Source of the DNA: Candidatus Latescibacterota bacterium
GTDB taxonomy: Bacteria > Latescibacterota > UBA2968
Length of the DNA stretch: 64,000 bases
Direction of reading: 5' to 3'
Assembly (NCBI GenBank): GCA_965222605.1
Contig: OZ244960.1
Coordinates: 128,001 to 192,000 of the forward strand
Under the pieces are notes generated by a model. That model ran no database searches. It was not told where the DNA came from and saw only the letters and a list, made by a program, of their open reading frames with translations. Positions 36,126 through 58,220 of this stretch are shown piece after piece. The number at the start of each line of letters is the position of its first letter. Positions within the stretch are counted from its first letter, which is position 1. The translations under genes and the position numbers were made by a program.

Positions 36126-36278
36126 TGCGTCGTGTCTCCATAAACGCGCTGTCAAACCGGGCGAATCGCCCCCCTATGCTTTTTGAATATAATGATAAAT
36201 GTCTATTTGCAATTTACGCGAAAAAACAGGGGTTTGCAATGGCATTTTGGCGTATAATGTAGGCGTTTTGGGAAGTGT

Positions 36279-36306
36279 TCCTGACATAATTCGTATTATG
36301 TCTATA
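36279..36306. other. dif-like tyrosine recombinase core site (11-6-11)
   Basis: TCCTGACATAA-TTCGTA-TTATGTCTATA; the inner GACATAA/TTATGTC arms are perfectly inverted, and the CATAA-N6-TTATG core matches dif. Confidence 0.7.
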
Positions 36307-36343
36307 TCTTTTTCTGCCTGGAATCTCGATAAACCGGATATCT

Positions 36344-36982
36344 TCACGGCCCTTGTATCCCCAGGCGGATGAGGATCACGGCGACCGTCAGCGCAATGCC
36401 GTTGACACCTGCGTGAATCGCCGCGGTTGTCCAATACGCGCGCTTACGGCCAAACTGACGCGCGTGCAGAAATGCAACGGCCAGGAAAAATCCAGCACCA
36501 ATGGTCGCCACAAACCCGTACACCCCGGCGTGCAGATGAAAGACGCCAAAGAGCACGGTCGAAAACCAGACCGCAACAACAGGCCTGTGTGTCACCTTCA
36601 TAGCAAGCCAGATCGGGAACCACTGGTTCATCAGCGTCTCGAGAAGCGGTGCCAGGAAGATCGCCGCGATGAACGTTATCCAAAACCCGTTGTCGGCAAT
36701 CATTGCCCTCGGGTCGATGGCTTTAGCAGCGGGATCGTTGGCAATCGAATAAAACGGCATGGCTTCGAGCATGAATCCCAGTGCCATATCCACGAGCGTC
36801 GCATAGACCGCGAAAACGGCAATCATCGCCGGCGCTGAAAGACTCAGAACGCGCTGAAAGTGCTCTCGAATCACATTGTCTTTGGATCCGAAGACATTGA
36901 GGACGTCGGGTTTAGGATGGGTTTCTGGCGGGACTGTACGGGATGGTACTGCGGGACGAGTTACGAGTGACTGGTGAACCAT
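36344..36982 (-). CDS. CPBP (CAAX/Abi) intramembrane metalloprotease, in frame with the recombinase-type N-terminus
   Basis: AP..E...., LFG..H, IH...N; the first ~25 aa are homologous to the N-terminus of the 26772-28304 protein. Confidence 0.75.
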   Translation of the reverse strand: MVHQSLVTRPAVPSRTVPPETHPKPDVLNVFGSKDNVIREHFQRVLSLSAPAMIAVFAVYATLVDMALGFMLEAMPFYSIANDPAAKAIDPRAMIADNGFWITFIAAIFLAPLLETLMNQWFPIWLAMKVTHRPVVAVWFSTVLFGVFHLHAGVYGFVATIGAGFFLAVAFLHARQFGRKRAYWTTAAIHAGVNGIALTVAVILIRLGIQGP

Positions 36983-37257
36983 GGAAATGCCCTCCTGTAT
37001 GGGTTGGAACTGAAAATTTTGATCTCGTGCCCTTCATATAGGGCAAAAACCGTGCCAAACAAGCCAAAAACCCGTAACTGATTGCAGGAGAGCGTGTTTT
37101 TAAAAAATGTCGCTGAGAGAACCTGTGGGGAACTGTTTCATATGAAACACTTACTGTGTCATATGACACAGTTGGGATAAGAATGAAACAGGGGGATTAT
37201 CGGGGGATGAAACACAAAAAATGCCCTGAAGAACACAGGGTATTTTGAAAGGTATTT
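36930..37257. repeat. Direct repeat copy B (sigma54 promoter 37042-37057, UAS palindromes 37132-37172, terminator)
   Basis: Minus strand TGGCACGGTTTTTGCC; boxes ACTGTTTCATATGAAACACT and the perfect palindrome ACTGTGTCATATGACACAGT. Confidence 0.9.
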
Positions 37258-37326
37258 ATAGCGATGGTGCTCGGATGAACACCATTCTGGAAATGTCGCG
37301 GTCATCTAAGACAATCAGTATATATC

Positions 37327-37424
37327 GCATTCGCCTATCACGCGCCGATGACCTATGAAAAGCTGCATCAAGCACAGGCTTGAAACACAAGCCCTAAACT
37401 CTCCACCCAAACGGGGCAGCTTCA
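37327..37424 (+). mobile_element. IS3-family right-end remnant
   Basis: OrfB-like tail AYHAPMTYEKLHQAQA* followed by CTCCACCCAAACGGGGCAGCTTCA; homologous to 39298-39349. Confidence 0.65.
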
Positions 37425-37431
37425 ATCTCGT

Positions 37432-39054
37432 TTAACGCGATTCACCAAAATGGGAAACAAAAATGAGAAAATCCCGAAAATCAACAGGTCCATCCCCGTT
37501 GAAATCCAATTTTGAATCATAATTATTATCCGTGTGCAAGTGCTTAAAACCATCCGCAAAACGCAGAAAATCGGAAAATGCAACGCGCCCATCGCCATCG
37601 ACATCGCATACGAGATCCGTCGCCATACTTCCGCCGGTTGACAGCGTGTAATTCACGCGCCGCCTTTCACCTGAAAGCGATGTTTCCATCACAATAAATA
37701 CAATCTCTTCAAAACGATTGGCTCTTGGAATCACCACCGTTGTCCCGCGCGGGTACAATAGCTCAACCCCAGACGGAGAGATCAGCATAACCAGCAACTT
37801 CCACTGCCCCCGATCATCCAGTGCAAACGTCCCCCGAAGCCCACCTGCGATATTCGAAGTTGCCACGCGCAAATATGTAGTCCCCAAATGATCAACCGTT
37901 TCAGACCCTTCAAAAGAGCCACCTGTACCGAGAAAAATATCGGCATGCTTTATCGAGGGCAAATCGCGCGCCTCAACATAATACTCGGGACGTGTACGCA
38001 CATCAGTTAAATAATTCCACGCGGCAAACCGCGGCATCACCTGGGCAAATCCGCCCAGAGGCATCCCATCATCAATAAGCGACAAATTATATTTGCTCGA
38101 GTCGCGTCTTTTGAGCAATTCCCAAACACTTTTGATCACATCGACACCGTAAACCTGCTCAATGTGGTGAGCAAAAATAGCAGCACCCAAAGCATGAACA
38201 ACACTAGAAAACTCGTCCAATGAGGCTTCGGGATCGTCGTAAATACACGAATGATAGCTCGGGCAATTTATGATGTACTGATAAAAATCATTCACATCGG
38301 GATAAGCCACATCCTCCATCCAGGTCGCCGTGAGTTCCTGCCACCACGCAGCACCATAGTCGGCATAATACCCAAATTGAATCGCGTGAAAAAACTCGTG
38401 TGCAGCCGTCACGCGCAAACCATTGAGTCCGCGAGCATGTCGGTAAGTATTATCCGTAAAATTATTGTCAATTTCTATATAACTCGGTGTCGTCAATTCT
38501 GATACAATCGGCCAAGCATAGCCATAAGCGGACTGAAGGGCGAGATTTTTAATATACACATCGTAAATACCATCGCCATCGGATGGAGGGGGATTGTAGC
38601 CCAATTGATTGATCTCCAAATCCCAAACCGCCTCAAAAACGCGCGCGGCTTCATCGACATAATCGGGCACACCATTGGCATTCGCGTCTGTTGGATCAAC
38701 GGCGTGTATTCCCGCCGTATTGTAGTGAATCTTAAAATGCCCTCTCGAAGACAGAATTGAATGACTCAGGATGGGACGTTGCTGGAGAAATGCAAATGCC
38801 TCCTTTGCCGCGGGGGGCAAACGATCCCAATTTGCGGTCAACCCCCTTATTGCCGATGTCCCACAAATAGCTCTATCCAACCGAAACTCGCTATCAGCGG
38901 GCAGAACCTCGGGGAAAAAATGGGCACATGCACGACAGTAAATATCGTGCAATTCAGTCCCGGGCGTAAAAATGGGCGGAACTTGTGCATGCACAGATCC
39001 GCCCGACAACAAAACAATCGCCAACAAAAGGACAACCCTACTCATATCAGCCAT
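37432..39054 (-). CDS. Secreted zinc metalloprotease (MXAN_6640-like) with a C-terminal dockerin/EF-hand-like pair
   Basis: Signal peptide; HF.IHY, NGVPDYV, TAAHEFFHAIQ, E.TATWMED; DVDGDGRVAFSDF...DFNGDGPVDFRDF. Confidence 0.8.
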   Translation of the reverse strand: MADMSRVVLLLAIVLLSGGSVHAQVPPIFTPGTELHDIYCRACAHFFPEVLPADSEFRLDRAICGTSAIRGLTANWDRLPPAAKEAFAFLQQRPILSHSILSSRGHFKIHYNTAGIHAVDPTDANANGVPDYVDEAARVFEAVWDLEINQLGYNPPPSDGDGIYDVYIKNLALQSAYGYAWPIVSELTTPSYIEIDNNFTDNTYRHARGLNGLRVTAAHEFFHAIQFGYYADYGAAWWQELTATWMEDVAYPDVNDFYQYIINCPSYHSCIYDDPEASLDEFSSVVHALGAAIFAHHIEQVYGVDVIKSVWELLKRRDSSKYNLSLIDDGMPLGGFAQVMPRFAAWNYLTDVRTRPEYYVEARDLPSIKHADIFLGTGGSFEGSETVDHLGTTYLRVATSNIAGGLRGTFALDDRGQWKLLVMLISPSGVELLYPRGTTVVIPRANRFEEIVFIVMETSLSGERRRVNYTLSTGGSMATDLVCDVDGDGRVAFSDFLRFADGFKHLHTDNNYDSKLDFNGDGPVDFRDFLIFVSHFGESR

Positions 39055-39139
39055 CTTCTCCCAATGATGAAACATAAATATGTGCAGCTACTTCAAGCCC
39101 GAGCGAATACGCGGCCTCGCCATTGACCACAATTTCCAG

Positions 39140-39349
39140 TGGAGTTACCCCGTTATGCGGGGCCAGTCCAGTTGCGACGCTGGAAAGGCAAACGAACCAT
39201 AGGAACAGGACTATAGCTGGCTTCCAACATGTGGAATCTCTGTGTTCGAATGAAGGAATTCTGCCCAGAGGCTGCGAAAGGCAGAGCGAGCAGCAAACAC
39301 AGGCTTGAAACCCAAGCCCTAAATACTCCACCAAAGCGGGGTAACTCCA
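39140..39349 (+). mobile_element. 210-bp internally deleted IS3-family element (MITE-like)
   Basis: Terminal inverted repeats TGGAGTTACCCCG / CGGGGTAACTCCA (TG...CA ends), similar to the IS3 left end at 42830; no target-site duplication visible. Confidence 0.65.
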
Positions 39350-39505
39350 GTTTTGAACGATCTCAAAACAGCATCCATTGATCACATTGTGTGCCTGGGT
39401 GATACTGCCTCTGGCGGTCCCCAACCATGTGAGGTTATTGCTCAGTTGAAATCTCTGAATGATTCTGTCGTCATGGGCAACATGGATATGTGGTGTCTTG
39501 ATCCA
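39350..39505 (+). pseudogene. Metallophosphoesterase fragment
   Basis: IDHIVCLGD...GPQP.EV......VMGN.D; truncated at both ends. Confidence 0.7.
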
Positions 39506-39508
39506 CTA

Positions 39509-40852
39509 TTATCTCGGGTCCATTACTCGCCCGACAAACAGGGTGGTATTGGTCGCTATGTCTCGAATGAGGAAGATAAATGGCCGATCGACCGCGACCA
39601 CAATCGGAGGTGGGGGAACGGATATTATCCCTACGACTCCGGCAGTGGCTGCAGCGGCTTCTGTGCCCTTCTCATCTACGAGAACGAATGCCTTGTGAAA
39701 CGCATCTGAAATGAACAGTTCTTTTGTTCCATCCATGCCCGAGAAGTCTGCTAATTGCGGGTCAAAGGCGTCTGTCATTCCTATCTTTTGGAGCGTTGCG
39801 GCCAGCTTGAATTGGGCTTCAAACTCGAATGAAGGCATTGTGAGTTCTACGTGCTCGTGGCTCAGGTCTTCCGAAATCTGACTGACGAGTTCGGCGTTTA
39901 GCGTATTTTCGAACGGTTCAAAATTGCCTTTGTCGGGAAGCAGGATGACCATGGATATTTCACTGCCGTCGTAGAGCAATTCCACGGCTTGATATCCTGT
40001 GCCCTTCGCATAGCCGAATGACTCGGCCTGTCGCATCATCGGTACTTTTATGCTGCTGCCATTTAGCAAATGGTAGTCGCCTTCAGCAGTGGCTTTTTCG
40101 TCGAAGGGGTAGAGCCAGGCCGCGTTGAAGTAGATGGCATTGGTGAGGACTAAGCGGGTGTAGTTGTCGATAGCGCCGGAAGGTATCAGGTCTTTGATTT
40201 TGTCTTCTGTCTGATGGGCGACCCAGTCGTTGATCGCGAATCGCGAGTTTTCTGGTGCCTCATTGAAATTTGCGATTTTCATTCCAGCACCGTAATTCTC
40301 AGCCAGTTTGTCCAGAAAGTCCTGCAGGAAGTCATAGCCCTGTTGTCCCCAGATCGCATTGGCGATGTTCAATCGAAATCCCTTGCCATCTTTGCCACTG
40401 CTCCCTTCGCCGCGAGAGGCGAGTTGGAGATCGAGGGCGTTGAACGCAGGATGCAACTTGTCCTGGGACAAGATGAAGTGTAGTGTGTTCGAAATCTGGC
40501 GTTCGGTTTCGCCTCTGGCACCGGCATAGGTCATGGCAAGTGCCAGCGAGATGCTGTAGGGCGAATAAAAAAGGTTCCCATCTTCCTCGCGCAATTCTTG
40601 ATACAGGCCGAAAGCCAAGGCGTTGTTTCCATGTGCCAGGTCTGTTAGCTCTGAATCTGTCGCCAGGTGTACGGTTACTCGCGTCTTTTCTGATCGTACT
40701 TCTTCCGTCGCAGACGGTGTCTCGGCTGGAGGTGGTGCCGTGGGCGAGGAGATCTCCGGTAATTTGCCGCATCCAATTAGTATTATAGCAGGTAGCAAAC
40801 AGTTGGTAAGGTGGGAAAGCCCCATTCTATATGGCGTTTGGGTCATTTTCAT
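39509..40852 (-). CDS. Serpin (serine protease inhibitor), probable lipoprotein
   Basis: NLFYSPYSIS.ALAM...GA.G.T, LTNAIYF...W, hinge EKGTEAAAAT, DRPF.F.IRD, LF.GRV.DP; lipobox LIGC; SD AAGGAGG. Confidence 0.93.
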   Translation of the reverse strand: MKMTQTPYRMGLSHLTNCLLPAIILIGCGKLPEISSPTAPPPAETPSATEEVRSEKTRVTVHLATDSELTDLAHGNNALAFGLYQELREEDGNLFYSPYSISLALAMTYAGARGETERQISNTLHFILSQDKLHPAFNALDLQLASRGEGSSGKDGKGFRLNIANAIWGQQGYDFLQDFLDKLAENYGAGMKIANFNEAPENSRFAINDWVAHQTEDKIKDLIPSGAIDNYTRLVLTNAIYFNAAWLYPFDEKATAEGDYHLLNGSSIKVPMMRQAESFGYAKGTGYQAVELLYDGSEISMVILLPDKGNFEPFENTLNAELVSQISEDLSHEHVELTMPSFEFEAQFKLAATLQKIGMTDAFDPQLADFSGMDGTKELFISDAFHKAFVLVDEKGTEAAAATAGVVGIISVPPPPIVVAVDRPFIFLIRDIATNTTLFVGRVMDPR

Positions 40853-40921
40853 TTTAGCCTCCTTGAATTGTTCGTGGTGAGGATTCCCCGGCGGAAAACG
40901 AGATATCATATTTTGTTAATC

Positions 40922-40951
40922 TGGACGCTCTTGGACGCTCTTGGACGCTCT
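40922..40951. repeat. Tandem 10-bp repeat (TGGACGCTCT)x3 upstream of the serpin
   Basis: Read directly from the sequence. Confidence 0.85.
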
Positions 40952-41312
40952 CGTTTAAAAAAGGTTCCGCCTTTCTCGCGCAGTTCTTGATACAGGCTGA
41001 AAGCGAAGGCGTTTTTGAGTATAAAGGTAATTATACGCAAAATTTAAGACCAATCAGTATCAATGATGCTGATTGGTCTTTGGACAAAAAGATGTGGCCC
41101 GAAATAAATGCTGAAGCCCGCAGGATCAGACCTGCGGGCTTCCTTGTATTTAGTTTGCAAATCCGCTATATTGTGTTTGATGGTTCGCGGCGGTCACGCG
41201 CGTTTGTGTCTAACTCGCCAATATATACAAACCCCTGATCGTAGCCCGACATACAGCTATACTTAGACACAGTAACCACCACACCACACGCGAAGGGAGA
41301 TTCATCATACAA

Positions 41313-41519
41313 ATGCCAACCATTGAAACCCGCGTTGCTTCTCTTGAAGCTGTCCAGGCGCAAATCAATGAGCGGCTCGGCAACATCGAACAAGAATTGC
41401 GCGATATTCGGGTCGATGCACGGCAAAACACACGATGGCTGTTTGGTTTGCTGGTCACGGTGTTGCTTGCCAACATTGGCACGGCAATTTCAATCATCGT
41501 TTCCTTGTCACGGCAATAA
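41313..41519 (+). CDS. Small coiled-coil + single-TM protein (paralog of 33620-33862)
   Basis: Shares RVASLEAVQAQINERLGNIEQ and LL.TVLLANIGTAI; shared upstream -10 box + TAGACACAGTAA. Confidence 0.75.
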   Translation: MPTIETRVASLEAVQAQINERLGNIEQELRDIRVDARQNTRWLFGLLVTVLLANIGTAISIIVSLSRQ

Positions 41520-41529
41520 ACACAAAAGG

Positions 41530-42259
41530 GCTTCCCGAATGCCGCATCATCACCAGCTTCCGCAGCGTTCAAATAAGCTGTCATAGGTGTTTTCGCATCC
41601 ACCGGCAGCTCTCCCCCACTAGGCAAATATACAACCATATCCGGACGGCCACTGTCACCTGACACCTGTTCCTCAAAAGCCATATACTGCTCCATGCCCA
41701 CCAATTCCACCACACGACGCAACTGCACCTCGCCCCATTGCCCACGCACAGAAGACGATTTAAGAGCCTCAGACAATGTGACGGTCGTGGTCTGAAGTTT
41801 GTGCTGCACATCCACGAGTTCCTTCAATTGCTGACCGAGTGCCCGATACGCGCCTTCTCGTTTTTCCTCCAGCGACCGCACATGCCCATCCAGCTTGTCC
41901 AAATTCTCTCGCACCGGCGTCATTAAGTTTTGCATTTCCGATTTCTGAGTCTTCCAATCGCCGCGCACCTCATTCAGCACGTTGGTCATCTGCGTGTGCG
42001 CCTGTTTCAAAAAAGCATCCGCATTGTGACGCAATGACTTGCCCGCCAGTGAGTCAAAAGCCTCGCGCAATTTTTCTTCCGCATTTTTGATCCACTCCTC
42101 TTTGTCAGCCTGGGCTTCCTTCTCGCTCTGCAACTTCGCCAACTCAATTCGCAAAGCCTCATCCCCACCCTGCGAATTGGCTCTGCGCCACAGCTCCATA
42201 ATCGCGCCCCCAACCACGCCCCCAATTACAAATGCGATCAATAGATACAGCATTTCCAT
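41530..42259 (-). pseudogene. rmuC: 3'-truncated RmuC
   Basis: TM + coiled coil, RG.WGE.QL, RPD.V..LP, VDAK.P; breaks off at the convergent small gene. Confidence 0.8.
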
Positions 42260-42370
42260 GTAGAAACTCCTTTTGTGGTTACACCGGTGTCAAATCACTT
42301 AACGAGATTTGACTGAGGTTTTGTGTCACCTGCCGTAACCTAACTCGTAAAACGTCAAGGAACGCTTTTA

Positions 42371-42592
42371 GTGATGAATCATTTTATTCCGCGCACCCTC
42401 AATCATCTTGAAGAGCGTTTGGACAAACGCATATTTTTTCGCGTCAATCGCCAACAAATTGTCAATTTACAATACATCGAAAAAATTGAGCCCTATTTTC
42501 AAGGCAGCCTAAAAGTGTTGTTGAAAGGGGGCTATGAAATTGAAATTTCCCGACGTCAGGCACAAAAATTCCGAGAACGCCTGAGTCTTTAA
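42371..42592 (+). pseudogene. C-terminal LytTR DNA-binding fragment of a response regulator
   Basis: TL..LEERLD...FFRVNRQ.IVNL..I..IEP, ISRR; no receiver domain. Confidence 0.75.
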
Positions 42593-42631
42593 TCTGCGCA
42601 AATGTACCAACTGGAAGGAGGTGACGTTATT

Positions 42632-42826
42632 ATGGCAGATTTCGCTGTAGGTTTCGGTCCAGGTATCGCTGTAGGTATCGCTATAGGAGCAGGTACTGGG
42701 AAACGAAGCGCGCGCAATAAACTTGAGAATCAGCTACGCAAAGCGATCTCCGACAACGAGCTTTCTATTCGCGATAAGAATGAGGAAACGTTGACAGTCA
42801 ATGAACTTTTTGAGTTTCTCGACTAA
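42632..42826 (+). CDS. Small hypothetical membrane-anchored protein
   Basis: SD AAGGAGGTG, Gly-rich hydrophobic N-terminus; ends 3 bp before the IS3 left end. Confidence 0.5.
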   Translation: MADFAVGFGPGIAVGIAIGAGTGKRSARNKLENQLRKAISDNELSIRDKNEETLTVNELFEFLD

Positions 42827-42829
42827 AAC

Positions 42830-43305
42830 TGGACTTGACCCGTTTCGGTGGGTACCTTATGAGTAGTTAGAAAGGAGACCCACTATGCCACCAACACGTC
42901 CACCTTATCCATCCGAGTTGAAGCGCCAGATCGTCGAGCTTGTGCGCGCTGGTCGCAGTCCTTCTGAATTGGCCAGAGAGTTTGAGCCGACCGCTCAGAC
43001 GATCCAAAACTGGATACGCCAAGCTGATCGGGACCAGGGACTTCGAGAAGATGGCCTGACCAGTGATGAGCGAGAAGAGTTGCGTCGTCTTCGACGCGAG
43101 AATAAGCAGTTGCGCATCGAGCGCGAGATACTGTCAAAAGCAGCGGCCTAATTCGCAGAGGAGACCGATGCGAACCCCAACAAATCTTCGCGTTAGTCAA
43201 AGCACTCCAGGCTTTTTGGCCAATCACCACGCAATGCCGAGTACTGGGTGTCTCCCTCAGTGGGTATTATGCTTGGACGACACGTACACTATCCAAACGA
43301 GCAAA
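42830..43305 (+). mobile_element. Degenerate IS3-family element (left end, orfA 42885-43151 with premature stop, start of orfB)
   Basis: Left end TGGACTTGACCCG; orfA YP.E.K.Q.VEL...EEL.RLRREN..LR.ER.IL.KAAA; orfB-like CRVLGVS.SGYYAW. Confidence 0.85.
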
Positions 43306-43700: not shown

Positions 43701-43701
43701 T

Positions 43702-48357: not shown

Positions 48358-48358
48358 A

Positions 48359-51300
48359 TCACTCTCTTCCCCTCCTGGCGTGGAAGTGCCGCAGCACGCC
48401 ATCAAGCCGCACCTGGTAGTCCCAGCCCTCGTGAAAGGTCTCGTATATATGGACAAGCTGCGACTCACTGAGCCCGTAAAGGCGGGCAACCACGGCATCC
48501 AACTCGTGAATCATATCCTCCTTCTCATCATCCATAAGGGATCCATACTCTACACCGACTGCATCTGCCCAGGTGGAAAAACGATCGTCAGGGCATGCGA
48601 GACGCCCCGCGAGTTGTACGACACGCTGCCATAGCACACTGTCGCGGTCAGGGCGTGGGATTGGAAAAGGGTTAAAGACGAAAAAATTGACATGTGTCTC
48701 CACGAACCGTCTTGCGTACCAATCGAGAGGGATGGACGATAAAGTACCGAGCAAGAATGCCTGATCCTTCTCATCGCCGCGCGGCCAAAGCAGATACGGT
48801 GCCTGATTGGCAATGAACACCTCGGGTGGTACGAGCGCAATTCGTACTGTCCGCGAATCTGTAGCTCTTGAGACATCTCGAAAGGCTATCCTCGGCGCGA
48901 AGCACGGTAGGGTCTTTGTATCTCGCAAATGATGGGGCGAGAATTCCCCATGAGCACTGCGTGTGCTATTACCACCTCTCAATCGCTTACGTTGAATCCT
49001 CTGGCACACCGGTCCCGGATCGGCCCAGGCATAATAGGTGTCGGTATCGGGAGTCCACAGATCGAAGGACTCTCCTTTGTAAACCGGCCAAAAACCGTCG
49101 GGACATTCTTTGCTCTCAACATCCATAAGATGCTTGTCATTAGTGGCGTCGAGTTCCCGATCTGGCCGCGCTCGCCATTGACCTGCTACGTTTAAATCGA
49201 AACGAGGTGCCTTCCGGAGTTGTGCAAATACATCAACCGATTCTTCCGTTGGTAGCAATGGTAGCGAGGCACTGTCGTTCCAGTCGAGCACATCACGGTT
49301 GTAGAACGCAGCCGGTTCCTTTACAACGCCTCCAAAGAACTTAGCCTCCGTCGCGTAAGGACCTTGTAAATAGATTGATTCTTTTTGGGGTGCACCGTGT
49401 TTTACACATACAAGTCCAATCGAGTATTGCGGATGCACCTCTGGAAATACCCAGTTCCGATTGTTCACCAACATTGTCACATCCACCCACGCGGTCTTGT
49501 CGAACATCGTTTGCCGGAATTTCTCCGAGCCTTTAGCGGCGAGCGCGCTACGCGGCAACACAACACCGATGTGTCCTCCATCTGCCGCGGTCAAATGCCA
49601 GAATCGCCAGCAGAATGCCTTGTAGAGATCGGGATCCCCTGTTCCCATACCAGGAAAGGCTCCGCCCACCAGAACCTTGCGTATCCGCTCGGTCTCCTTC
49701 AACTCATCCTCGTAAAGCACGAGAAGATCGGACCGCTCTTCTCGCAGCCGAATTTTTTCCGCTTCCATCAGACGTTGCGAAAGAGAGCGCAGACCTGGAA
49801 AATGGCGTGCCCAAAAAGCGTGTTCCTCTATGGTCGCCTCTTGCCATGGTGGATTACCGAGAATCACATCAAAACCTGGCCGCTTGCGAAGGAAAACTTC
49901 CGGAAAGGCTACTGGAAAGTGAAGGACATCGAGGTCATCCAGATCTTGCCTTGCGATCTGTACCGCCTCCAATGCATCTGCATCATTCCCAAGATTCTCC
50001 CAGTTTTCGAAGGGAAAAAGGACCACCTTCGGGTCTTCGGAAATGGGCTGTGCTGCTATCAGATCGCAAAGTGCTTCTGTGCTGCGGATCGCCTCGCGGG
50101 CTTCTTCCAATGCCTCTCGAGCATCTGCGATGTCCTGCAAAGACGCATCGTTGATATTGGCAAGCCGCCTCAGCAGTCCCGCTGCCCTGCCCAGTAAGCT
50201 CTGTGCATCAACTGGAAACATTGGCAAAGAGAGTGCCTCGAATTTTTCCCTGATCTCGTCGAGAGTGCCGACACCGACCAGTGCATTGCCATGCACCAGA
50301 TTGTGATCCAGAAATGAGAGTGGTAGCCCGGGTACAAAGGTATGGATCCAGACTGCCAAACGCGCGAGCTGCACCGCAAGACCGTTGAGATCAACGCCGT
50401 AAATACAGCGCCGGGCAATCATGCGCCGCAACAACTGGCCGTCCTCTATTGTCGTGCTTTTATCAAGCTCCCCTAATTCGCCAAGGGCAACCGTGCGAAG
50501 CTTCTCAAGCTCCCTGCGAACGCCCGGCAGATTCCGCCCTGCGAGAAAATCTGCCAGGCGCTTCTCGATCCGATCAATGGCCCCAATCAGAAAGTGGCCC
50601 GAACCCATCGCAATATCGGCTACCCGGAAATCGAAGAATGCCTCGGCTGCATCCGTATCATCCAGGCTGTTAAGGCGGGCAAAATGATCAGTCAATGCTG
50701 GTTCCAGTGCACCGTTCAGTAAATGTTCGACAGCAAACGGCTTGGTGTAGTAGCTTCCCGACGACTTGCGCGCGCCGGATCGGTTGTGCAGATAGACCTC
50801 GCCCGTCAATACGTCTGGTGTCTCCCCCTCGCGTGCTGGGACGTAAATGGACTCTGTTTGCTGCTTTTTCTTTTGCTCTTTGAGGACAAGTTTGGTTTCC
50901 GCAACTGCCAGCTCGGATTCCAATAAGCCTTCATAGATCGTCCCGAACTCGCGCACGCCCAGTGAACGAAAATCAACCGGCCCGGGCACGCCTTCCGGGG
51001 TCTCGATAACCAAGAGGTGGCGAAGTGCTGTCTCAAAGCTCTCGTTTGGCAGCGTGATGGCGGCCAATTCTGCGCCTGTTTTCGAAACCTCTTCTTCGCT
51101 TGCGAATAGTCCACCGTCGTAGGCGGGTACGCTCCATTCGGTATTGCCCTCAGCCACAGCCTGCCAAAGCAAAGCGGTCTCTTGCCAATGGGAATCTCCT
51201 GTAGCAATCGGTTTGTCCTTGGCAACGAAGTCTGCCAGTTCTTGTGCTTTCTGTTTGAGTGATCGGCTCCGGTAAGCGTCGTTAAAACGATATGGCAGAA

Positions 51301-52408
51301 GATCGCGGTCTTCCGCGTAGGCGATAAACAAAAGCCGAAACAAAACAGTCAGTGCCATTTCGTAGGTAAGACTAATATCTTCCGGACTCGGTTTATCAAT
51401 GCCACGGGCTGCGGCAATACCCTGTGCAAGTTTAGGCACCACGTAGTTGTAAATGCGTTCGCGCAAACGCTCGGCGAGCTTGCCTGCGAAGCGCTGTGAT
51501 GCCTCCAATATCTCGTCCAAGCTACCTTTCGGTGTCAGGGCCTCGGCTGAATAGATCAGCCAGAGATACGGCAGATGCCCATCTGCCAGCAATGAAGGCT
51601 GGCATTCGACGTATGTCTCGGTACGACCGCGGCGGCCAACGCCTGCATCGACATTGGTCGCGTAGAGCCGAAGCCGGTTTCCTTGCGTCAGAACTACCCA
51701 GGGAAGGTTTTCGTCGTCTGCCTTTTTCAGCGCATAGCTGATCGGCGACAAACTATTGAACCGAGCAGATCCTGCCTCTGCCGACTCACTTTCTCGCAAC
51801 ATAACTGCAAGTGCAGTACGTTGGTCTCCGCTACGCAAAAGACTGGTCAGATTATCCAGAGGCTCAACTCGAAAACCCAGCGCGTCCAACAGGTCGCGAT
51901 CACGCTTGTTTAACGCAGCGTGCGCCTTGCGTTTGGCATCGGCCCAGTCCGGACGTTTCGGTACGCCATGCTCTAATTCGTGGAGGGCGAGCAAGCCTTC
52001 GTTGGTTAGACCTGGTAGGGCTGTTTCCAGGGATGGCAGAGCCTGAGACAACAAACGAAGTGCAGCGTGTCGGTCGGGTTGGCCGAGTGCCTCGCGGCAC
52101 AGGCGTTCGACCTGTCCCACATCCATATCTTTATAGACTGGCGGTATTTCGCCTGTTGCTCCGGTGATCAATGCACCACCCGGGTGTAGAACGATCAGGA
52201 GTAACGGTGCCGCGCGCCGTCCTTTACGGGCTTTCCATGTCATTGTCAAAGTCGCTGGGGAAGGCTGGTTGGCTGCTCGTGCTACGGCAACCTCAAGTCC
52301 ATTCGTACCTTGACCGATAAACAGGCCCACTGACTGTAGGCCAGACTTTCCATCCGGCGACCACGGTCGAGATAAAATATCTGAAAGAAACTCTACTTCG
52401 TCCGACAT
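48359..52408 (-). CDS. Large N6-adenine DNA methyltransferase (Eco57I/type IIG- or DrmMI-like)
   Basis: RKSSGSYYT, D.AMGSGHFL, YGVD.N, GFDVILGNPPW, DLYKAF, C-terminal target recognition domain. Confidence 0.9.
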   Translation of the reverse strand: MSDEVEFLSDILSRPWSPDGKSGLQSVGLFIGQGTNGLEVAVARAANQPSPATLTMTWKARKGRRAAPLLLIVLHPGGALITGATGEIPPVYKDMDVGQVERLCREALGQPDRHAALRLLSQALPSLETALPGLTNEGLLALHELEHGVPKRPDWADAKRKAHAALNKRDRDLLDALGFRVEPLDNLTSLLRSGDQRTALAVMLRESESAEAGSARFNSLSPISYALKKADDENLPWVVLTQGNRLRLYATNVDAGVGRRGRTETYVECQPSLLADGHLPYLWLIYSAEALTPKGSLDEILEASQRFAGKLAERLRERIYNYVVPKLAQGIAAARGIDKPSPEDISLTYEMALTVLFRLLFIAYAEDRDLLPYRFNDAYRSRSLKQKAQELADFVAKDKPIATGDSHWQETALLWQAVAEGNTEWSVPAYDGGLFASEEEVSKTGAELAAITLPNESFETALRHLLVIETPEGVPGPVDFRSLGVREFGTIYEGLLESELAVAETKLVLKEQKKKQQTESIYVPAREGETPDVLTGEVYLHNRSGARKSSGSYYTKPFAVEHLLNGALEPALTDHFARLNSLDDTDAAEAFFDFRVADIAMGSGHFLIGAIDRIEKRLADFLAGRNLPGVRRELEKLRTVALGELGELDKSTTIEDGQLLRRMIARRCIYGVDLNGLAVQLARLAVWIHTFVPGLPLSFLDHNLVHGNALVGVGTLDEIREKFEALSLPMFPVDAQSLLGRAAGLLRRLANINDASLQDIADAREALEEAREAIRSTEALCDLIAAQPISEDPKVVLFPFENWENLGNDADALEAVQIARQDLDDLDVLHFPVAFPEVFLRKRPGFDVILGNPPWQEATIEEHAFWARHFPGLRSLSQRLMEAEKIRLREERSDLLVLYEDELKETERIRKVLVGGAFPGMGTGDPDLYKAFCWRFWHLTAADGGHIGVVLPRSALAAKGSEKFRQTMFDKTAWVDVTMLVNNRNWVFPEVHPQYSIGLVCVKHGAPQKESIYLQGPYATEAKFFGGVVKEPAAFYNRDVLDWNDSASLPLLPTEESVDVFAQLRKAPRFDLNVAGQWRARPDRELDATNDKHLMDVESKECPDGFWPVYKGESFDLWTPDTDTYYAWADPGPVCQRIQRKRLRGGNSTRSAHGEFSPHHLRDTKTLPCFAPRIAFRDVSRATDSRTVRIALVPPEVFIANQAPYLLWPRGDEKDQAFLLGTLSSIPLDWYARRFVETHVNFFVFNPFPIPRPDRDSVLWQRVVQLAGRLACPDDRFSTWADAVGVEYGSLMDDEKEDMIHELDAVVARLYGLSESQLVHIYETFHEGWDYQVRLDGVLRHFHARRGRE

Positions 52409-52423
52409 ATTACTCCTCTTTTG

Positions 52424-53906
52424 TTATGCCCCTGCATATACAAACTCTTTGTTTTCGAAAATCCTTTTCTCGTCATTCCATACCAAAGGCAATTCATCTG
52501 TACAGGCTCGAGAAAGAAAAATCTCGAGATCTTGGCTTTTATCCAAAGAGTCACTTAGATTATTAGGCTTGCCATTGTGGCCATAGACAATGCAGATTTC
52601 ACGGTTCGCCAAAATACTACGGATTCTCTTTTTTAAGCACGCCATTGTCATAGGATGGAGGGAAAGCCCCAAACTTAAAAAGAAAGATTCGTAATATGTC
52701 GTAGAATGGAAATCATCGATTTTACTATGAAAAACCATAGACTGATAATACCAGTCCCGAAACTCTCTATCAGAAATCATTGAATCCTTCGTCAACCTAT
52801 CTCGCACAGTTTTAAGACTCTGGCGGATATCGACCAACAACGGCTTATAATCTTCACACTGGGGTAAAGAAAGCCTGTGAGTTACGTGTTCAATTTTATC
52901 AATAATTTTACATATTTTCTCACGCTCATCAGCACTGCGTTCTCTGTTTTTTTCGTAGTCTAAATCATCATTAATATCGTCTCCAACATCGCCTTTATCA
53001 TTACATATCAACTCACCTTTTCTATCTCTCTCCATTCCATCTAATAAAAATTCTCCCAAAAGTTCAAGGTATGCAACGAGCATCCGCCAGTCATTATCAT
53101 AGCGGGCAAGGTGGGAAAAAGCGTTTAGATAATTTCCATACCTGCCGCCCCAAGCACACATGTCTTTACGTATCCTTTGATCCAGTTTTTCGGCTTTCTG
53201 ATCATTAGCATCATAGCCCCAGAATGATCGGGTGATACCGGATATTTTATTCCATAGCCTGTCCTCTATTTTCGGTCTAACTTGGCCGGGGCCCACTGTC
53301 TCCCGCATCAGAATATCAATAGCAGCAGAGACTATCTCAATCATAGCATATACACTTACTTTTCCTTTGACCCCCTCACTCCCTTCGTTAGGGATATACC
53401 TCCATGAGGTGTAGTCCGATCCCATTTGTTCCAGGAACTCATCTACACTATCCACAGGTGTTTCGGTGTTTTTATTCTTTCCATCAATCTGTTTATATTT
53501 CCATTTATATTTTATGTGGAGATCGAACTCGTAATCTCCCATAGCTTCGCCTATCGTGCTCGGAGATTTGTCAGGAATGGCGATGTAGTTGTGAAGGGAT
53601 TGAAATTCTTTATACCTCTCCCGTATAAAATCCTTGTCACCTGATTTCAGTAAGCAAAAAAGATATGACAGATTATGCTGATATTGGGGCGGAATATCGG
53701 CACTATTTCCCCTGAGATCTTTAAGCACTTTAAAACTTTGCTCTATTATAAGGGTACAAGCAAGTTACTGGCATCCAGGCATTTAAATTTTCATACTCTG
53801 CATACATATTCTGGCGCAGCGGATTTTTGCCCAGGTAGTCGCGTACTATATCTAAACACTGGTCAAGATTGCGTGCAGCACGTAGGGGGGCGATAATTTT
53901 TTTCAT
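52424..53906 (-). pseudogene. Low-GC HEPN-domain protein with a +1 frameshift
   Basis: ATG 53906 (MKKIIAPL...VTCLY) joins LIIEQSFKVL...HNLSYLF...SWRY if one G of GGG at 53752-53754 is removed; E..FK, H.L..LF and RY are HEPN-like motifs. Confidence 0.65.
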
Positions 53907-54090
53907 TTTATCCTATCTTCTATTACAAAAAAAGCGGGAGAAACCTGAACCTTGTGCTTCCCTCGCGTATGGTGTCACTTGCATTTCAAATCAAGGCTGG
54001 GACGATTTCCAAAAGAGATATTGTCAAATGCCGTGAATGGAATTGGCACATCCTCTGAGAAGCTGGTTCTGGGATCAAGGTGATTTACCC

Positions 54091-54333
54091 AACTCCTTCC
54101 ACAGCCGCACGGTGAACCGGTTTTCTTCCTCGACAAAGTCAGGCTCGGTGTTATTGTGGGCACGCATACCCGGAATAATTTTGTTCCGTACGCCCATGCC
54201 TCGAGCGTCAACATAACCGTAGTCGCGCATGATATTGACCAATGTCTGATTGCGAGCGTATCGCATGCCGGACTTCATCCCGTCTATTGTCACAGTATTG
54301 GGCAATCTGCCGGGACTCTGAATCTCAAGGCGG
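54091..54333 (-). repeat. 243-bp duplicate of the 3' end of the AlbA/HATPase gene (56667-56909)
   Basis: RLEIQSPGRLPNTV...RFTVRLWKEL nearly identical in both copies. Confidence 0.92.
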
Positions 54334-54449
54334 GTTGTGGCATTACTATTTCCTATCTTTTCAATGACTGGTGGTTTTGGCAATCGAATAACAACAGCAG
54401 AGCGCAGGGCTCGAGTATAGTCGAGTAAACTCTTTTTGACTTACAATCG

Positions 54450-55841
54450 TTAGTCGCTGGCTTCCAGGCGCGGTGTTCGCTGAAGTTCGGGGGCAGCGAG
54501 CGTTTCGGGATGTACAGCGAGTTCATCGATTTGAGGAATGTCTTTGCCCTTGGTGATACCGCGGTCTTCAAGTTTACGGGTATGTGGAAATACAGTGCGG
54601 TTGAGGGAACGAATGCTTTTGTTGTGGGCATCAACAGCCTTATCGAGATTCACACCAACCCTATTGACATGTTCAAGATAGATGCGAAAACGGTCATAGA
54701 GTTCGGCGGCAGTATCAGAAATGTTGCGTGCATCGGTTTGGAGGCGTTGTTCACGCCAGGCGAGGGCGACCGTGCGAAGAAAGGCAATCAGATTCAATGG
54801 CGTAGCCATAAGGACTTTATGCTGTTGCCATGCTTCCTCCCACAATGCAGGTCGTGTATTGAGGGCAGCGTCCAAAATACCGTCGGCACCGATGAACATG
54901 ACAACGAAATCGGGTGAGCCTTCAACCCAATGGGAGTAGTCACGGCGTTTGAGTTCGCGAGCATGTCCCATGAGTGCGCTGGCATGGCGATCGAGCAACT
55001 TCCGCTGAGTATCGGGATCTGTTGTGTTGCGTGCTTCAAAGTAGGATTCGAAAGGGGTTTTGGAATCAACCACCACCCGTACACCGCCAGGGATGTTGAC
55101 GATTAGATCTGGGCGGATGTCGCTTGCTTCGTCAAGCGTAGTGGTAGTTTCCTGAGTAACGAAGCTGACGTGTTCGGTCATGCCTGCAAACTCAATAATG
55201 TTGCGTAGTTCCTGCTCACCCCAGTAACCGCGGACATTGGAGGAGCGCAGTGCCTCGCGCAGGTTACCCGTTTCACTACTAAGCTGGCCTATTTGCTGTT
55301 GAATGTTCGTGATGCTTTCATGAACCTGGGCGTACGCGCCTTCGCGGGCTTTTTCGATCTCACCGACGCGCTGCTGCAATTTCTCAAGCGATTCGCCAAC
55401 GGGCTTGACGAGGCTGTCAACTGCCACTTGACGTTTTTCAAGGTCGGTGACGGCGAGTTCTCGTTGCTGCAGGAAGTTCTCCTGGGCCTGTTTGCGAAAC
55501 TCCTCGCTGTTGGACTTGAAGATATCTGCGGCCAGTCCCTTGAAGCGTTCATCAAGTTCTTGTAACCGTTGTTCGTGATTTTTCCGTTCGGTATCTCGTT
55601 CAGCAACTGCTGCTTTGAATTGTGCTTCGCTCTCACTCAGTTTCGCTTGGAGGCCGTCGCGCTGGGCCTCAATGCGCGTGCGTTCTCCGACCTCGCTATC
55701 AACGGAGTTAGCGTGTACGTCGCGTTCAGCCTCAGCTCGTGCAAGTGCTTCACGGGCGTTAGTCACTTGGGTTTTGGCGCGAGACCATGCGATCAATGCG
55801 CCAAGGGCGAGTAACGCGAGGATAATTAAGGTTATTTCCAT
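54450..55841 (-). CDS. rmuC: DNA recombination protein RmuC
   Basis: N-terminal TM, coiled coil, RG.WGE..L, RPD.I...PG, VDSK.P, SPDFVVMF, ATP. Confidence 0.9.
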   Translation of the reverse strand: MEITLIILALLALGALIAWSRAKTQVTNAREALARAEAERDVHANSVDSEVGERTRIEAQRDGLQAKLSESEAQFKAAVAERDTERKNHEQRLQELDERFKGLAADIFKSNSEEFRKQAQENFLQQRELAVTDLEKRQVAVDSLVKPVGESLEKLQQRVGEIEKAREGAYAQVHESITNIQQQIGQLSSETGNLREALRSSNVRGYWGEQELRNIIEFAGMTEHVSFVTQETTTTLDEASDIRPDLIVNIPGGVRVVVDSKTPFESYFEARNTTDPDTQRKLLDRHASALMGHARELKRRDYSHWVEGSPDFVVMFIGADGILDAALNTRPALWEEAWQQHKVLMATPLNLIAFLRTVALAWREQRLQTDARNISDTAAELYDRFRIYLEHVNRVGVNLDKAVDAHNKSIRSLNRTVFPHTRKLEDRGITKGKDIPQIDELAVHPETLAAPELQRTPRLEASD

Positions 55842-55882
55842 TGTGATTCCTTTTATTTAACTGCGGCGGTGTGGAACGGGAA

Positions 55883-56258
55883 TCATATCTGCTCCTCAGC
55901 CCATTGGACGACGGCTTCGGCAATCACTATCGCTTCCCGATACTCGGCTTCGGAAACGGGCCTGATTTCGCCAGGATAGCGCGTGATGGTGGCGTATTTG
56001 GTCAATAGACTGGCTCGACTGATCGTCGCTGGTATGGACTCTCCCCCTTCTTTGAGCAGTGATAACAGGCGGGCCAAGTCATGCACGTAAGGAAACTCGA
56101 TATTGCACGCGATCATCACGCCCTTGATAGCCTTTTCGGCTGCCTGCTGTGCGTTGAAGCATAAATTTTCGAGATAGACGCCGGGCACCTGGCTCTTTGC
56201 TTGAGTTAGGTCGCTTCGGGCGCGGATCATCAGGCGGAAAGCGTTCAGGGAGATTCAT
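55883..56258 (-). pseudogene. HEPN protein of HEPN/MNT pair 2, with a frameshifting deletion near the start
   Basis: MNLPERFPPDDPR (ATG 56258) is out of frame with RARSDL...; compared with the paralog at 7614-8006, about 17 nt (EWLN) are missing at a CGCG microhomology. An internal ATG at 56230 could restart translation. Confidence 0.7.
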
Positions 56259-56559
56259 AGACCACCTTTCCTTCCTGCAGCGCTGGCTTGATGATCAGCG
56301 CGTGACTGTTCTTGTAGCGCTCGACGGCTTGGGGCGTGACCACGAAGGCATCAACGGCCGCACCTACTCCGTGCAGATTCTGGTAAATCTGTCCCATGAG
56401 ATCAAGTGGATCCACACCCTCCTTGACGATGAGCAGATCAACATCGCTATGGCGGTTCATGTCGCCTCGGGCGGCAGACCCAAAAAGGATAATCCGCTCG
56501 GGATCAGCCACTTCCACAATTCGACTGATGATGTTGTCCAAAATCGTTTGATCTAGCAT
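56245..56559 (-). CDS. MNT nucleotidyltransferase antitoxin (pair 2)
   Basis: IILFGSAARG..NRHSDVDLLIV; paralog of 7993-8316. Confidence 0.9.
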   Translation of the reverse strand: MLDQTILDNIISRIVEVADPERIILFGSAARGDMNRHSDVDLLIVKEGVDPLDLMGQIYQNLHGVGAAVDAFVVTPQAVERYKNSHALIIKPALQEGKVVYESP

Positions 56560-56626
56560 CGCGCTGTCCTTTGTAAAAAATCAAATCTTTTGCTCCGAAA
56601 CTTCAGAATATGTCTTCAAATCCTAG

Positions 56627-57883
56627 TTACCGTCCGTCAAAGTGACTGATACCTGGCGTGTCCTCTAACTCCTTCCAAAGCCGCACGGTGAACCGGTTTT
56701 CTTCCTCGATAAAGTCAGGCTCGGTGTTATTGTGAGCACGCATACCTAAAATAATTTTGTTCCGCACGCCCATGCCTCGAGCGTCAACGTAGCCGTAGTC
56801 GCGCATGATATTGACCAGCGTCTGATTGCGCGCGTAGCGCATGCCCGACTTCATCCCGTCTATTGTCACAGTATTGGGCAATCTGCCAGGACTCTGAATC
56901 TCAAGGCGGTCAGAATAGATAGCCAACATGATGTCCGTGCCCGAAATGCTGTAATCGCGGTGAACGAGCGCGTTCACCACGGCTTCTCGAATCACAATTT
57001 CCGGATATTCCCAGCGGTCAATCCTCCGACCACCCTCGATACGGGCCGTTGGCGTCGTGTTGCGACGTACAAAGTCCCATGCCTGCTCGACAAGGCCAGC
57101 TTCGACTATACTCTCGTTGGCACCTTTCAGCGGAACCATCGGGCCGCGCAGATCCTCATCGGTGCGGGTTGCGTAATCGGGGTCAGGCCCCGGATAACAG
57201 ATCGCGCGGATCCCCGATTGGGGCACGTACCTGTTCGGATTTTTTCCAAAGAGAAGCAACCCATCAATGGTCGCAACGTGCTGGGCGCCGGACACGGTCA
57301 TCAGTTCAATATTTCGCAACAGCGTTTCCCAACCATCGAAATCTTCTGTTGCTGGGGCTGGCCCGCCGATAACCTGAATCAGGTAATCGCGCAGACGGCG
57401 AAGGTCCAAAGCGTCGAGACTTGCGCCTGGCACGGGCTTCGAACCATATCGCAAGTGGCCCGACTTCTGGTATATCCGCTCGAGCTCCTCTCGGCACTCT
57501 TCTCGGGAGGTTTTACCAATACGGATGTAATAGGTTCTGCGACCGCCGTGGACGCATGCATACGGCTTATCTGGACCACGCGCGATAGAAACAGCGAGAA
57601 CATCCCGGTTTGGCTCGGCATTTTTCACCCACAAGAGAATCGGGACGGTCGGCGGGTTGATCTTGACGCGGCAAAGTTCGCTCACCCACTCCTCAAGACG
57701 CTCCCGGGTCGTACCGGAAATACGCCCATCGTCTTCGACGCCGAGCAGAACAGTACCCCCTTCCAGATTGAGGAAAGCCACCAGTTCCTTAGCCAGAGCG
57801 TGATTCTGGATATCGTCCCGTTTGAACTCCAGGATAGAATTCTCCCCATTGTGGATCAGGTCAATCAACTCGGTGCGGTTCAT
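56627..57883 (-). CDS. AlbA_2 (Schlafen-like) + HATPase_c_4 (RecG C-terminal-like) protein
   Basis: GE....EFK, AFLN.EGG..LLGVEDDG, REAVVNALVHRDY, SPG.LP, RN, G.G. Confidence 0.85.
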   Translation of the reverse strand: MNRTELIDLIHNGENSILEFKRDDIQNHALAKELVAFLNLEGGTVLLGVEDDGRISGTTRERLEEWVSELCRVKINPPTVPILLWVKNAEPNRDVLAVSIARGPDKPYACVHGGRRTYYIRIGKTSREECREELERIYQKSGHLRYGSKPVPGASLDALDLRRLRDYLIQVIGGPAPATEDFDGWETLLRNIELMTVSGAQHVATIDGLLLFGKNPNRYVPQSGIRAICYPGPDPDYATRTDEDLRGPMVPLKGANESIVEAGLVEQAWDFVRRNTTPTARIEGGRRIDRWEYPEIVIREAVVNALVHRDYSISGTDIMLAIYSDRLEIQSPGRLPNTVTIDGMKSGMRYARNQTLVNIMRDYGYVDARGMGVRNKIILGMRAHNNTEPDFIEEENRFTVRLWKELEDTPGISHFDGR

Positions 57884-57976
57884 GCTATCTCCTCTGCTGC
57901 AGCTCAAAGGCATTTATGCCTCCTTCGAGAAGATCCTCCACCATCTCCCCCACAGGTTGCGCGTCGATTGACCCCA

Positions 57977-58105
57977 TCATGATGATAGCACATGGGTTTC
58001 GATAACGATTGATCGATCAGATAGGCCGACGGTCTCGAGTTCTGATGTCAATAGTCCAATGTAGTTTTCTTCGAGCCAATCGGCGACCATCTGATCTGGG
58101 GCGTC
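57977..58105 (-). pseudogene. DnaA N-terminal-domain-like fragment
   Basis: Manual translation DAPDQMVADWLEENYIGLLTSELE...* resembles DnaA_N 'P..F..DWL...Y..LI'. Confidence 0.45.
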
Positions 58106-58128
58106 AATATAGGCGTTGTTGGAGGTAT

Positions 58129-58220
58129 TCCTGACAAAACATGGAAATTGTCCCTATTGAGATAGACAATTGTGAGAATGTGTCCCTATTAAGATAGACA
58201 ATTGTAGGATTATGTCTATA
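58129..58220. repeat. Array of three dif-like 11-6-11 core sites with an exact 32-bp period
   Basis: TCCTGACAAAA-CATGGA-AATTGTCCCTA ttga GATAGACAATT-GTGAGA-ATGTGTCCCTA ttaa GATAGACAATT-GTAGGA-TTATGTCTATA. Confidence 0.8.

Follow-up and report, generated by a model that had tools for sequence, protein, structure and literature searches.

Two dif-like sequences stand at either end of a block of about 22 kb in the window analysed here, and they raise the question of whether they are recombination sites of a mobile island or something else that only looks like them. The window is the whole 64,000-nucleotide stretch, G000:128001-192000, where G000 is a Latescibacterota genome assembled as a single 6.34-Mb contig. 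The first-pass annotation had regarded the two sequences as 11-6-11 sites of the Xer type, serving as att or res sites of the island. The answer favoured here, with moderate confidence, is that both are copies of a lineage-specific, low-copy modular intergenic repeat, which lies passively at recombination-prone joints of the island. The resemblance to dif is accidental; the element is a BOX-like modular junction repeat of unproven function. Comparisons within the genus cover 21 genomes, several of them drafts.

The left-hand sequence, copy A (36256..36306, + strand), has a leader at 36256-36289, which comprises the flank AATGTAGGCGTTTTGGGAAGTGT (36256-36278) and the arm TCCTGACATAA (36279-36289). 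This is followed by TTCGTA and by the tail arm TTATGTCTATA (36296-36306). The 28-mer TCCTGACATAA-TTCGTA-TTATGTCTATA at 36279-36306, together with its preceding flank, is as first reported. Positions 36283-36302 form a near-perfect 20-nt palindrome, and the copy can adopt a hairpin of 8 bp (z -4.4). The right-hand sequence, copy C (58106..58222, + strand), was delimited from the sequence, from aligned copies and by its 32-nt period. It consists of a leader (58106-58139), unit 1 (58143-58174), unit 2 (58175-58206) and the tail GGATTATGTCTATAAC (58207-58222). Its flank AATATAGGCGTTGTTGGAGGTAT (58106-58128) matches that of A at 18 of 23 positions, its left arm TCCTGACAAAA (58129-58139) at 10 of 11, and its right arm TTATGTCTATA (58210-58220) at 11 of 11. 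Both copies have the same orientation (direct, + strand), and C abuts the terminator of a conserved ABC-ATPase gene at the right edge of the island. The mirrored site that had been placed at 58106 therefore stands as regards flank, arms, direct orientation and edge position, but not as regards layout; A has the 11-6-11 arrangement, and C does not. In C, the arms are 70 nt apart, and the gap is occupied by two tandem 32-nt units, with ATAGACAATTG at both 58162 and 58194.

When up to 3 mismatches are allowed, the window contains a single match to the full 28-mer of A. An exact second copy, missed by the first-pass annotation, lies elsewhere in the genome at G000:5471117 on the - strand (locus B). 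This copy is part of a 1.2-kb repeat in which a CAAX-protease gene is also found. At locus D (1093961-1094036), the same leader and arms as in A enclose one unit. G000 harbours four copies in all (A, B, C and D), and only C and D contain units. The inner motif CATAA-N6-TTATG is found at 9 sites in the 6.34 Mb of G000 against 5-6 expected, and is thus unremarkable alone. The similarity of A and C exceeds chance; both are members of a single family, of which the genus has many homologous copies.

With the 126-nt C element as the query, matches at E<=0.01 are found in 15 of the 21 genomes. BLAST with this query misses zero-unit copies; the pattern search used for these tolerated up to 3 mismatches. 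Relatives have 1-4 matches each, and copy number in the genus is low, at 2-4 per genome, without a large number of dispersed copies. Twenty-five aligned copies share the same plan: a leader of approximately (T)GTAGGCGTTGTTGGAGGTGTTCCTGACAAAA, n tandem 32-nt units, and a tail. The unit, approximately GGAAATTGTCyCTATTGAGATAGACAATTGyr, is quasi-palindromic and recurs with a period of 32 nt, with n ranging from 0 to ~3.5. The tail GGATTATGTCTATAAC is the start of another unit, i.e. a truncated unit. Two units are the commonest state (10 copies), followed by none (7) and one (4); a single copy has a partial unit, and three have at least three units or are truncated. Additional zero-unit copies, beyond the 25, are present in G017 and G002. 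Leader and tail are related as inverted repeats only imperfectly (18 predicted pairs, some of them G-T). Inspection of the aligned copies by eye revealed no consistent target-site duplication at the element ends, and a clean empty site was not found. As a separate observation, the ~3.5-unit copy at L032 (G007:C1 ~5515900-5516300) is bordered on both sides by a direct repeat of ~70 nt that stems from the 3' end of a DUF3368 toxin gene; G015 has a similar arrangement.

How the dif-like appearance of A may have arisen can be read from the zero-unit copies. In this form, GACAAAA and TTATGTC are juxtaposed, and the usual core is GACAAAATACGAATTATGTC. The pattern search for zero-unit copies gave nine sites in 8 of the 21 genomes; six of these consist of GACAAAA, then TACGAA, TACGGA or CACGGA, then TTATGTC. 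Among the nine, the CATAA-TTCGTA-TTATG form is restricted to G000 (A and B) and G017. Compared with the common core, the 20-nt core of A has three differences, but compared with the reverse complement of that core it has just one. Compared with three substitutions, a single quasi-palindrome template switch, a mechanism known from the literature, would be the simpler explanation. As the palindrome is rare and its core is reverse-complemented, the dif-like look is derived, by loss of all units and flipping of the centre. An inverted copy at the left border had also been considered, but a search of G000 gave no inverted units.

The true dif lies elsewhere. Cumulative GC skew over the whole of G000 has its minimum at 3.04 Mb, where dnaA is located (3035134), and its maximum at ~45 kb, which places the terminus 85-150 kb to the left of the window. 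Within the window, the skew is negative throughout and merely flat over the island, without a flip, as the first-pass annotation had guessed; its view that these sites are not at the chromosomal terminus is borne out. Scanning around the terminus identified the canonical-looking site ATACGGTATAA-GATACA-TTATGTAAACT at G000:52019-52046, 76 kb to the left of the window start and ~112 kb from A. The 24-nt core of this site, allowing up to 3 mismatches, is present in exactly one copy in 19 of the 21 genomes (the two without a match are 91% and 97% complete), and a control with the core written backwards gave 0 matches. The arms are conserved across the genus, with variation mainly in the centre. 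The distance from this site to the orthologous ABC locus is 99-142 kb in G002, G007, G009, G014 and G017, and 134 kb in G000. The chromosomal dif is therefore the site at 52019-52046, at the GC-skew maximum opposite dnaA.

Copy A resembles a chromosomal dif in that its two 11-bp arms show partial dyad symmetry about a centre of 6 bp. It differs in that it occurs twice in G000, is not conserved as 11-6-11, and is identical to the dif of the genus at only 13 of 28 positions (5/11 in the XerC-side arm, 1/6 in the centre and 7/11 in the XerD-side arm); in the other orientation, the match is 14/28, with 2/6 in the centre. A and C are 112 and 134 kb away from dif, respectively. The pdif modules are flanked by oppositely oriented XerC/D and XerD/C sites, whereas A and C are direct. 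Another parallel might be sought in integrative mobile elements exploiting Xer (IMEX), such as the CTX, VGJ and TLC phages and the gonococcal genetic island. According to the portion of PMC5357621 consulted, these insert at the host dif, retaining its XerC arm and its centre, and direct dif-like repeats flanking acquired DNA are their expected footprint. The present element, by contrast, is 112-134 kb from dif, and its XerC-side arm and centre are unmatched.

The position of copy C at the edge of a variable region is conserved among relatives. The variable hotspot (25720..58105, no strand assigned) extends between HlyD/YdjM genes and the ABC gene, and was defined from flank orthology and gap comparison. 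Its right anchor is a LolD/MacB-type ABC ATPase gene (58348..59127, - strand), which is matched in 41 of 41 related genomes. The hairpin terminator of this gene (58265..58295, - strand) is the start of the conserved core and is kept in all ABC-locus alignments, even in those without the element. The left flank, through HlyD or through YdjM and the recombinase-like gene int-AAA discussed below, is conserved together with the ABC gene. Measured from the left-flank match to the ABC-locus match, the gap is 2.9 kb in G009, 5.6 kb in G014, 22.7 kb in G002, 40 kb in G007 and 51 kb in G017. On the right, orthology begins at the left end of the element in seven other genomes: at 58106 in G012, G002, G007 and G009, at 58111 in G011 and G006, and at 58119 in G017. 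Elsewhere it begins at 58142 (G015), at ~58208 (G005 and G020) or at the terminator, 58252 (G014, G004, G019 and G008). Orthologous copies beside the ABC gene have two units in G002, G012, G006, G007, G017 and G011, one in G009 and none in G005. Because orthology in relatives starts at the left end of the element, copy C is an old, vertically kept right border of the hotspot. Breakpoints in relatives had been proposed as a test of these sites, and relatives do break at C.

The surroundings of copy A are of a different kind. To its left lies a portable promoter cassette of ~115 nt (36142..36257, - strand), which is shared with locus B and four other G000 loci. By eye, it contains a promoter (TTGCAA at 36239-36234, a 17-nt spacer, and TAAATT at 36216-36211) directed leftward into a UPF0175 antitoxin gene; the hotspot cargo includes a toxin-antitoxin pair. 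The consensus promoter scan gave 8/12 matches for this promoter and did not flag it; promoter and terminator scans around A and C returned nothing useful. To the right, the tail of A faces the 3' end of a CAAX/Rce1-like protease gene (36344..36982, - strand; Pfam PF02517). This gene or its 3' remnant also adjoins the tail in loci B, D, L026, L027, L040, L030 and L130. In six relatives (G002, G012, G006, G007, G009 and G005), the cassette is found directly to the left of the ABC-locus element, so that an A-type left flank and a C-type right flank are contiguous across one element. The order in G009 is HlyD, a promoter region called P2, a gene for an 835-aa protein (the orthologue of the 849-aa gene of the window), the cassette, a one-unit element and the ABC terminator, with the cassette immediately preceding the start of the 835-aa gene. 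In G003, the order is 849-aa gene, cassette, zero-unit element and CAAX gene. Comparison with G009 shows two extra segments in G000, namely 31.2-36.1 kb and the whole stretch from the tail of A to the leader of C.

The claim that the two sites bracket a ~22-kb block is thus right insofar as the joints are real and the block was gained here, or lost elsewhere. What does not hold is its unity. Paralogues of its dockerin and serpin genes (88-89%) occur at other places in G000, and homologues are scattered in relatives. The restriction-modification and helicase part was missing in all of the relatives searched (5 of 5). The block is further divided by several other short repeat families, and the domain annotation of the window genes shows no recombinase gene between 36.3 and 58.1 kb. 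To judge from this gene content, the A-C block is a G000-specific mosaic and not one element. The idea of att or res sites belonging to a coherent island accordingly finds no support, there being neither a recombinase gene between A and C nor a coherent block in relatives.

Across the family, the flanks have been reshuffled at the element. On the leader side, there are at least five kinds, which include the promoter cassette, the end of a UPF0175-DUF3368 operon and the end of a Gp49/HTH_3 operon; on the tail side there are three, i.e. the ABC terminator and two diverged CAAX 3' ends. The cassette as left flank is paired with the ABC right flank in six copies and with a CAAX right flank in five, and the DUF3368 left flank is paired with two types of right flank. 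Some copies are broken. In G015, cassette and leader have been lost between two CCTGAC repeats; in G012:C42 and G013, the leader alone remains, fused to the terminator; and in one G017 copy the break falls two bases beyond the central 6 bp, shortly after the centre of the palindrome. These breakpoints may be read as marks of slippage and of rearrangement associated with microhomology or hairpins. Twenty-four sequencing runs were listed, all as contigs, and four were compared with 39500-59400. One DNA contig joins 56590 to 58119 with just 30 nt on one side, and another has 24 nt in place of 58024-58110; both are hints only. A short inverted repeat around the cassette had also been considered as the mark of an invertible promoter, and this was rejected, as the repeat is not conserved in locus B or in relatives.

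Together, these features suggest how the element could behave. The number of units would change by replication slippage, and the core of A would have been flipped in one quasi-palindrome template-switch event. The element itself would be passive, offering a short portable homology and a hairpin-prone, fragile point. Homologous or microhomology-mediated recombination at this point could join island modules or remove them, with no dedicated Xer-type reaction involved, and may have placed the 22-kb block between two copies. The closest known counterpart is provided by the BOX elements of Streptococcus pneumoniae (boxA, boxB(n), boxC). As far as the excerpt of PMC3049150 goes, these are likewise composite intergenic repeats with fixed end modules and a variable tandem middle, whose length varies by strain or locus, and which are hairpin-capable and found beside promoters and gene ends. 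The differences are that there is no sequence relation, that the phylum is another one, and that copies per genome are far fewer here. In comparison with BOX elements and miniature inverted-repeat transposable elements (MITEs), the inverted-repeat relation of leader and tail is weak, and the hallmarks of insertion named above were not found.

Several points weigh against this interpretation. The passive role is only a default assumption. What A and C have in common today, 34 nt with 6 mismatches plus 11 nt, is too short for RecA to recombine them efficiently. The sharp, recurrent boundaries and the imperfect leader/tail inverted repeat would also suit a mobile element or a protein-recognised site. 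Signs of mobility, such as a target-site duplication or a clean empty site, did not turn up. The zero-unit copy of G017, ~50 nt from a recombinase gene and direct with respect to the ABC-side copy, resembles an int-attL...attR arrangement. Finally, the ABC-locus element is 83-91% conserved, about as much as neighbouring coding sequence and more than a neutral spacer might be.

The alternatives that fare best both assign the element to a DNA-binding protein. In the first, it would be an att-like site for a tyrosine recombinase of the hotspot, with cargo gained and lost between direct copies. Two candidate proteins exist. The gene int-AAA (26772..28304, - strand), at the left border of the hotspot, encodes according to profile hits a Xer-like catalytic domain without the N-terminal core-binding domain, joined to an AAA_16 ATPase. 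A second gene (32817..33392, - strand) encodes a 191-aa Xer-like protein that consists of the catalytic domain only (Pfam and NCBIfam hits); a core-binding domain was searched for upstream of it, and none was found. The two proteins are 29% identical, both score best against the catalytic domains of XerA, XerC and XerD (profile positions ~90-260), and the catalytic residues R, K, HxxR, H and Y are kept, as judged by eye from the alignment. The int-AAA protein has a C-terminal hydrophobic stretch, and its gene is present at 87-89% identity, without stops, in seven other genomes. Of 53 genomes of the order, 18 gave any match; its N-terminal part turned up in genus g1 alone, and the fusion is confined to this genus. 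The AAA part alone (~296 aa) also exists as a paralogue beside a YdjM paralogue. In G000, the first 17 codons of int-AAA are those of the CAAX gene, through a deletion of 722 nt by which a site retained in G017 was lost.

That such a recombinase acts on the element is suggested by the direct orientation of A and C and by the single-copy state in relatives. In addition, G000, G002, G007, G017, G006 and G011 have int-AAA at the left border and the ABC-side element on one contig, and G012 has the AAA part in this position. In G017, each of the two copies of int-AAA has a zero-unit site ~50 nt upstream of its start, oriented like the ABC-side element, and the hotspot there (~50 kb) reads int-AAA, site, cargo, element, ABC. 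In the part of PMC5357621 available, xerS is described as adjacent to its site, forming an xerS-difSL module. The hotspot shares with this module and with attL/attR pairs the direct repeats around variable DNA and a Xer-like gene at one border, which in G017 is beside a zero-unit copy; the single-element state of six relatives is a further likeness to attL/attR. The differences are that the recombinase, a fusion with an AAA ATPase, has no core-binding domain, that most copies of the gene have no adjacent site, that the cargo differs from species to species and is a mosaic in G000, and that the A-C block contains no integrase. No site was found near int-AAA in five of the six upstream regions fetched from other genomes, nor in G000, and the 39 open reading frames from the ~1.5-kb flanks of 12 other copies include no recombinase. 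Moreover, the left breakpoints are spread over ~13 nt (58106-58119), and the co-occurrence of int-AAA with the element follows phylogeny. An att-like role consequently seems unlikely.

A second reading, which may be considered equally unlikely, treats the units as an array of operator- or iteron-like sites for a DNA-binding protein; this would regulate the leftward promoter of the cassette at a distance of ~40 nt, or shield it from the convergent gene upstream. GACAATTG is repeated at intervals of 32 bp, together with TTGTC-N12-GACAA quasi-palindromes. Every unit keeps its 3' half, (A)TAGACAATTG, whereas the 5' half is variable, a pattern that fits direct repeats of a DNA motif with 32-bp spacing better than a conserved hairpin, and would suit protein-binding sites. 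Covariation that would indicate an RNA structure is absent, the array is just upstream of the promoter-like cassette in 11 copies, and the same genomes have variable-number tandem palindromes in another promoter region, P2. On the other hand, ten copies have no leftward promoter, as their leader adjoins the end of a toxin-antitoxin operon or of some other gene. Copies without units or with the leader alone persist, and no gene for a cognate regulator is consistently adjacent.

The first of these readings can be extended so that the hotspot becomes a chromosomal landing pad. In this form, int-AAA, as a membrane-anchored AAA fusion at the fixed left border, would act on the element as its attachment site, the 32-nt units would serve as accessory binding sites, and defence and toxin-antitoxin cargo would be captured or lost between copies. 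In this extended form, the proposal is slightly more doubtful still.

It is very improbable that the element is transcribed and works as RNA, be it as a small RNA, as a 3'-UTR (untranslated region) stabiliser or attenuator of CAAX or toxin-antitoxin transcripts, or as a repeat RNA like type III antitoxins. Type III antitoxin arrays are tandem, hairpin-capable repeats, and the ~32-nt units resemble them in this respect. They also resemble BOX elements, which are predicted to fold if transcribed, in the section of PMC3049150 consulted. The hairpin of copy A is indeed better than those of shuffled sequences, but this is trivial for a palindrome, and single-strand folds of C are no better than shuffles (z -1.6 and -1.2). 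An Rfam scan of 35500-59000 gave no match at E<=1. RNAalifold on ten two-unit copies returned a covariation term of +0.77, with 1 of 33 pairs compensatory, i.e. no covariation, and a downstream toxin gene is not consistently present. Among the contigs listed from RNA runs, none covers 58100-58250, which proves nothing; those of the ABC gene begin at 58257 and 58284.

Least probable of all, and close to being dismissed, is integration or excision of the block by host XerCD at IMEX- or pdif-like substrates: copy A is formally 11-6-11 with CATAA-N6-TTATG, G000 has two full-length Xer-like genes (313 and 308 codons; regions G000:2655688-2656191 and 1883135-1883650), and the G017 copy breaks near the central 6 bp, but C is not 11-6-11, the palindrome is a rare, derived variant of G000 and G017, A is a poor match to a dif that is more than 100 kb away, and the direct orientation is unlike that of pdif pairs.

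The remainder of the hotspot has a composite build. From the left, its genes are int-AAA, the 849-aa gene, two AAA-ATPase_like/PDDEXK_9 genes around the gene of the 191-aa Xer-like protein, and the UPF0175 antitoxin gene, followed by copy A. To the right of A come the CAAX protease, a dockerin protein, a serpin, a truncated RmuC, a type IIG restriction-modification protein, an HKD-Snf2 protein, a full RmuC, a HEPN/MNT pair and a Schlafen/AlbA_2 protein, and then copy C. The AAA-ATPase_like/PDDEXK_9 genes (31210-32763 and 34122-35678, - strand) have counterparts at seven further G000 loci, which makes a nine-member paralogue family with 73-93% DNA identity; at loci B and D, fragments of Xer-like catalytic domains stand beside PDDEXK_9 copies. 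PADLOC gave no match for the two recombinases or the PDDEXK_9 genes. The segment 45007-52408 (- strand) encodes a type IIG restriction-methyltransferase (1349 aa, PADLOC E 1e-291), an HKD+Snf2 helicase (1163 aa) and a 434-aa protein. On either side of the restriction-modification and HKD-Snf2 genes are two RmuC-family genes (- strand), one at 41210-42259 with the N-terminal part only (349 aa) and one at 54450-55841 of full length (463 aa).

Other repeats occur in the same region. A hairpin-bearing repeat of 60-95 nt (core CAGGCTTGAAACNCAAGCCCTAAA) is present at 37331-37424 and 39290-39349, in direct orientation, flanking the dockerin-protein gene, and recurs at about a dozen further G000 loci. 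A 243-nt direct repeat of 94% identity (54091-54333 and 56667-56909) encloses the full rmuC gene and the HEPN/MNT pair; its left copy is a 3'-end fragment of the Schlafen-like gene. The P2 promoter region contains one to three tandem 16-bp palindromes (TGTKTCAWWTGAMACA) with 21-bp spacing, and is found in the window at 28457-28514 and 37134-37170, and also at G000:5470272. It precedes int-AAA and the CAAX gene, and in G009 it precedes HlyD. The palindrome has six matches genome-wide, all in P2; none is near the lexA-like genes at 4.47 and 3.56 Mb, and an SOS box was therefore rejected as an explanation.

What follows for this lineage can be stated at several levels. A CATAA-N6-TTATG palindrome inside an island is insufficient for calling a Xer site; here, it proved to be a repeat without units whose core has been flipped. 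For an uncultured, sponge-associated lineage of Latescibacterota, the genuine dif has been located. A conserved hotspot has been defined, with fixed borders and 2.9-51 kb of variable cargo that comprises defence genes, toxin-antitoxin genes and paralogues. Should int-AAA act on the element after all, this would represent a new route of island assembly and a new kind of recombinase. As matters stand, the element is an ordinary lineage-specific repeat at recombination-prone joints, and a lineage-specific newcomer to the known class of modular interspersed repeats.

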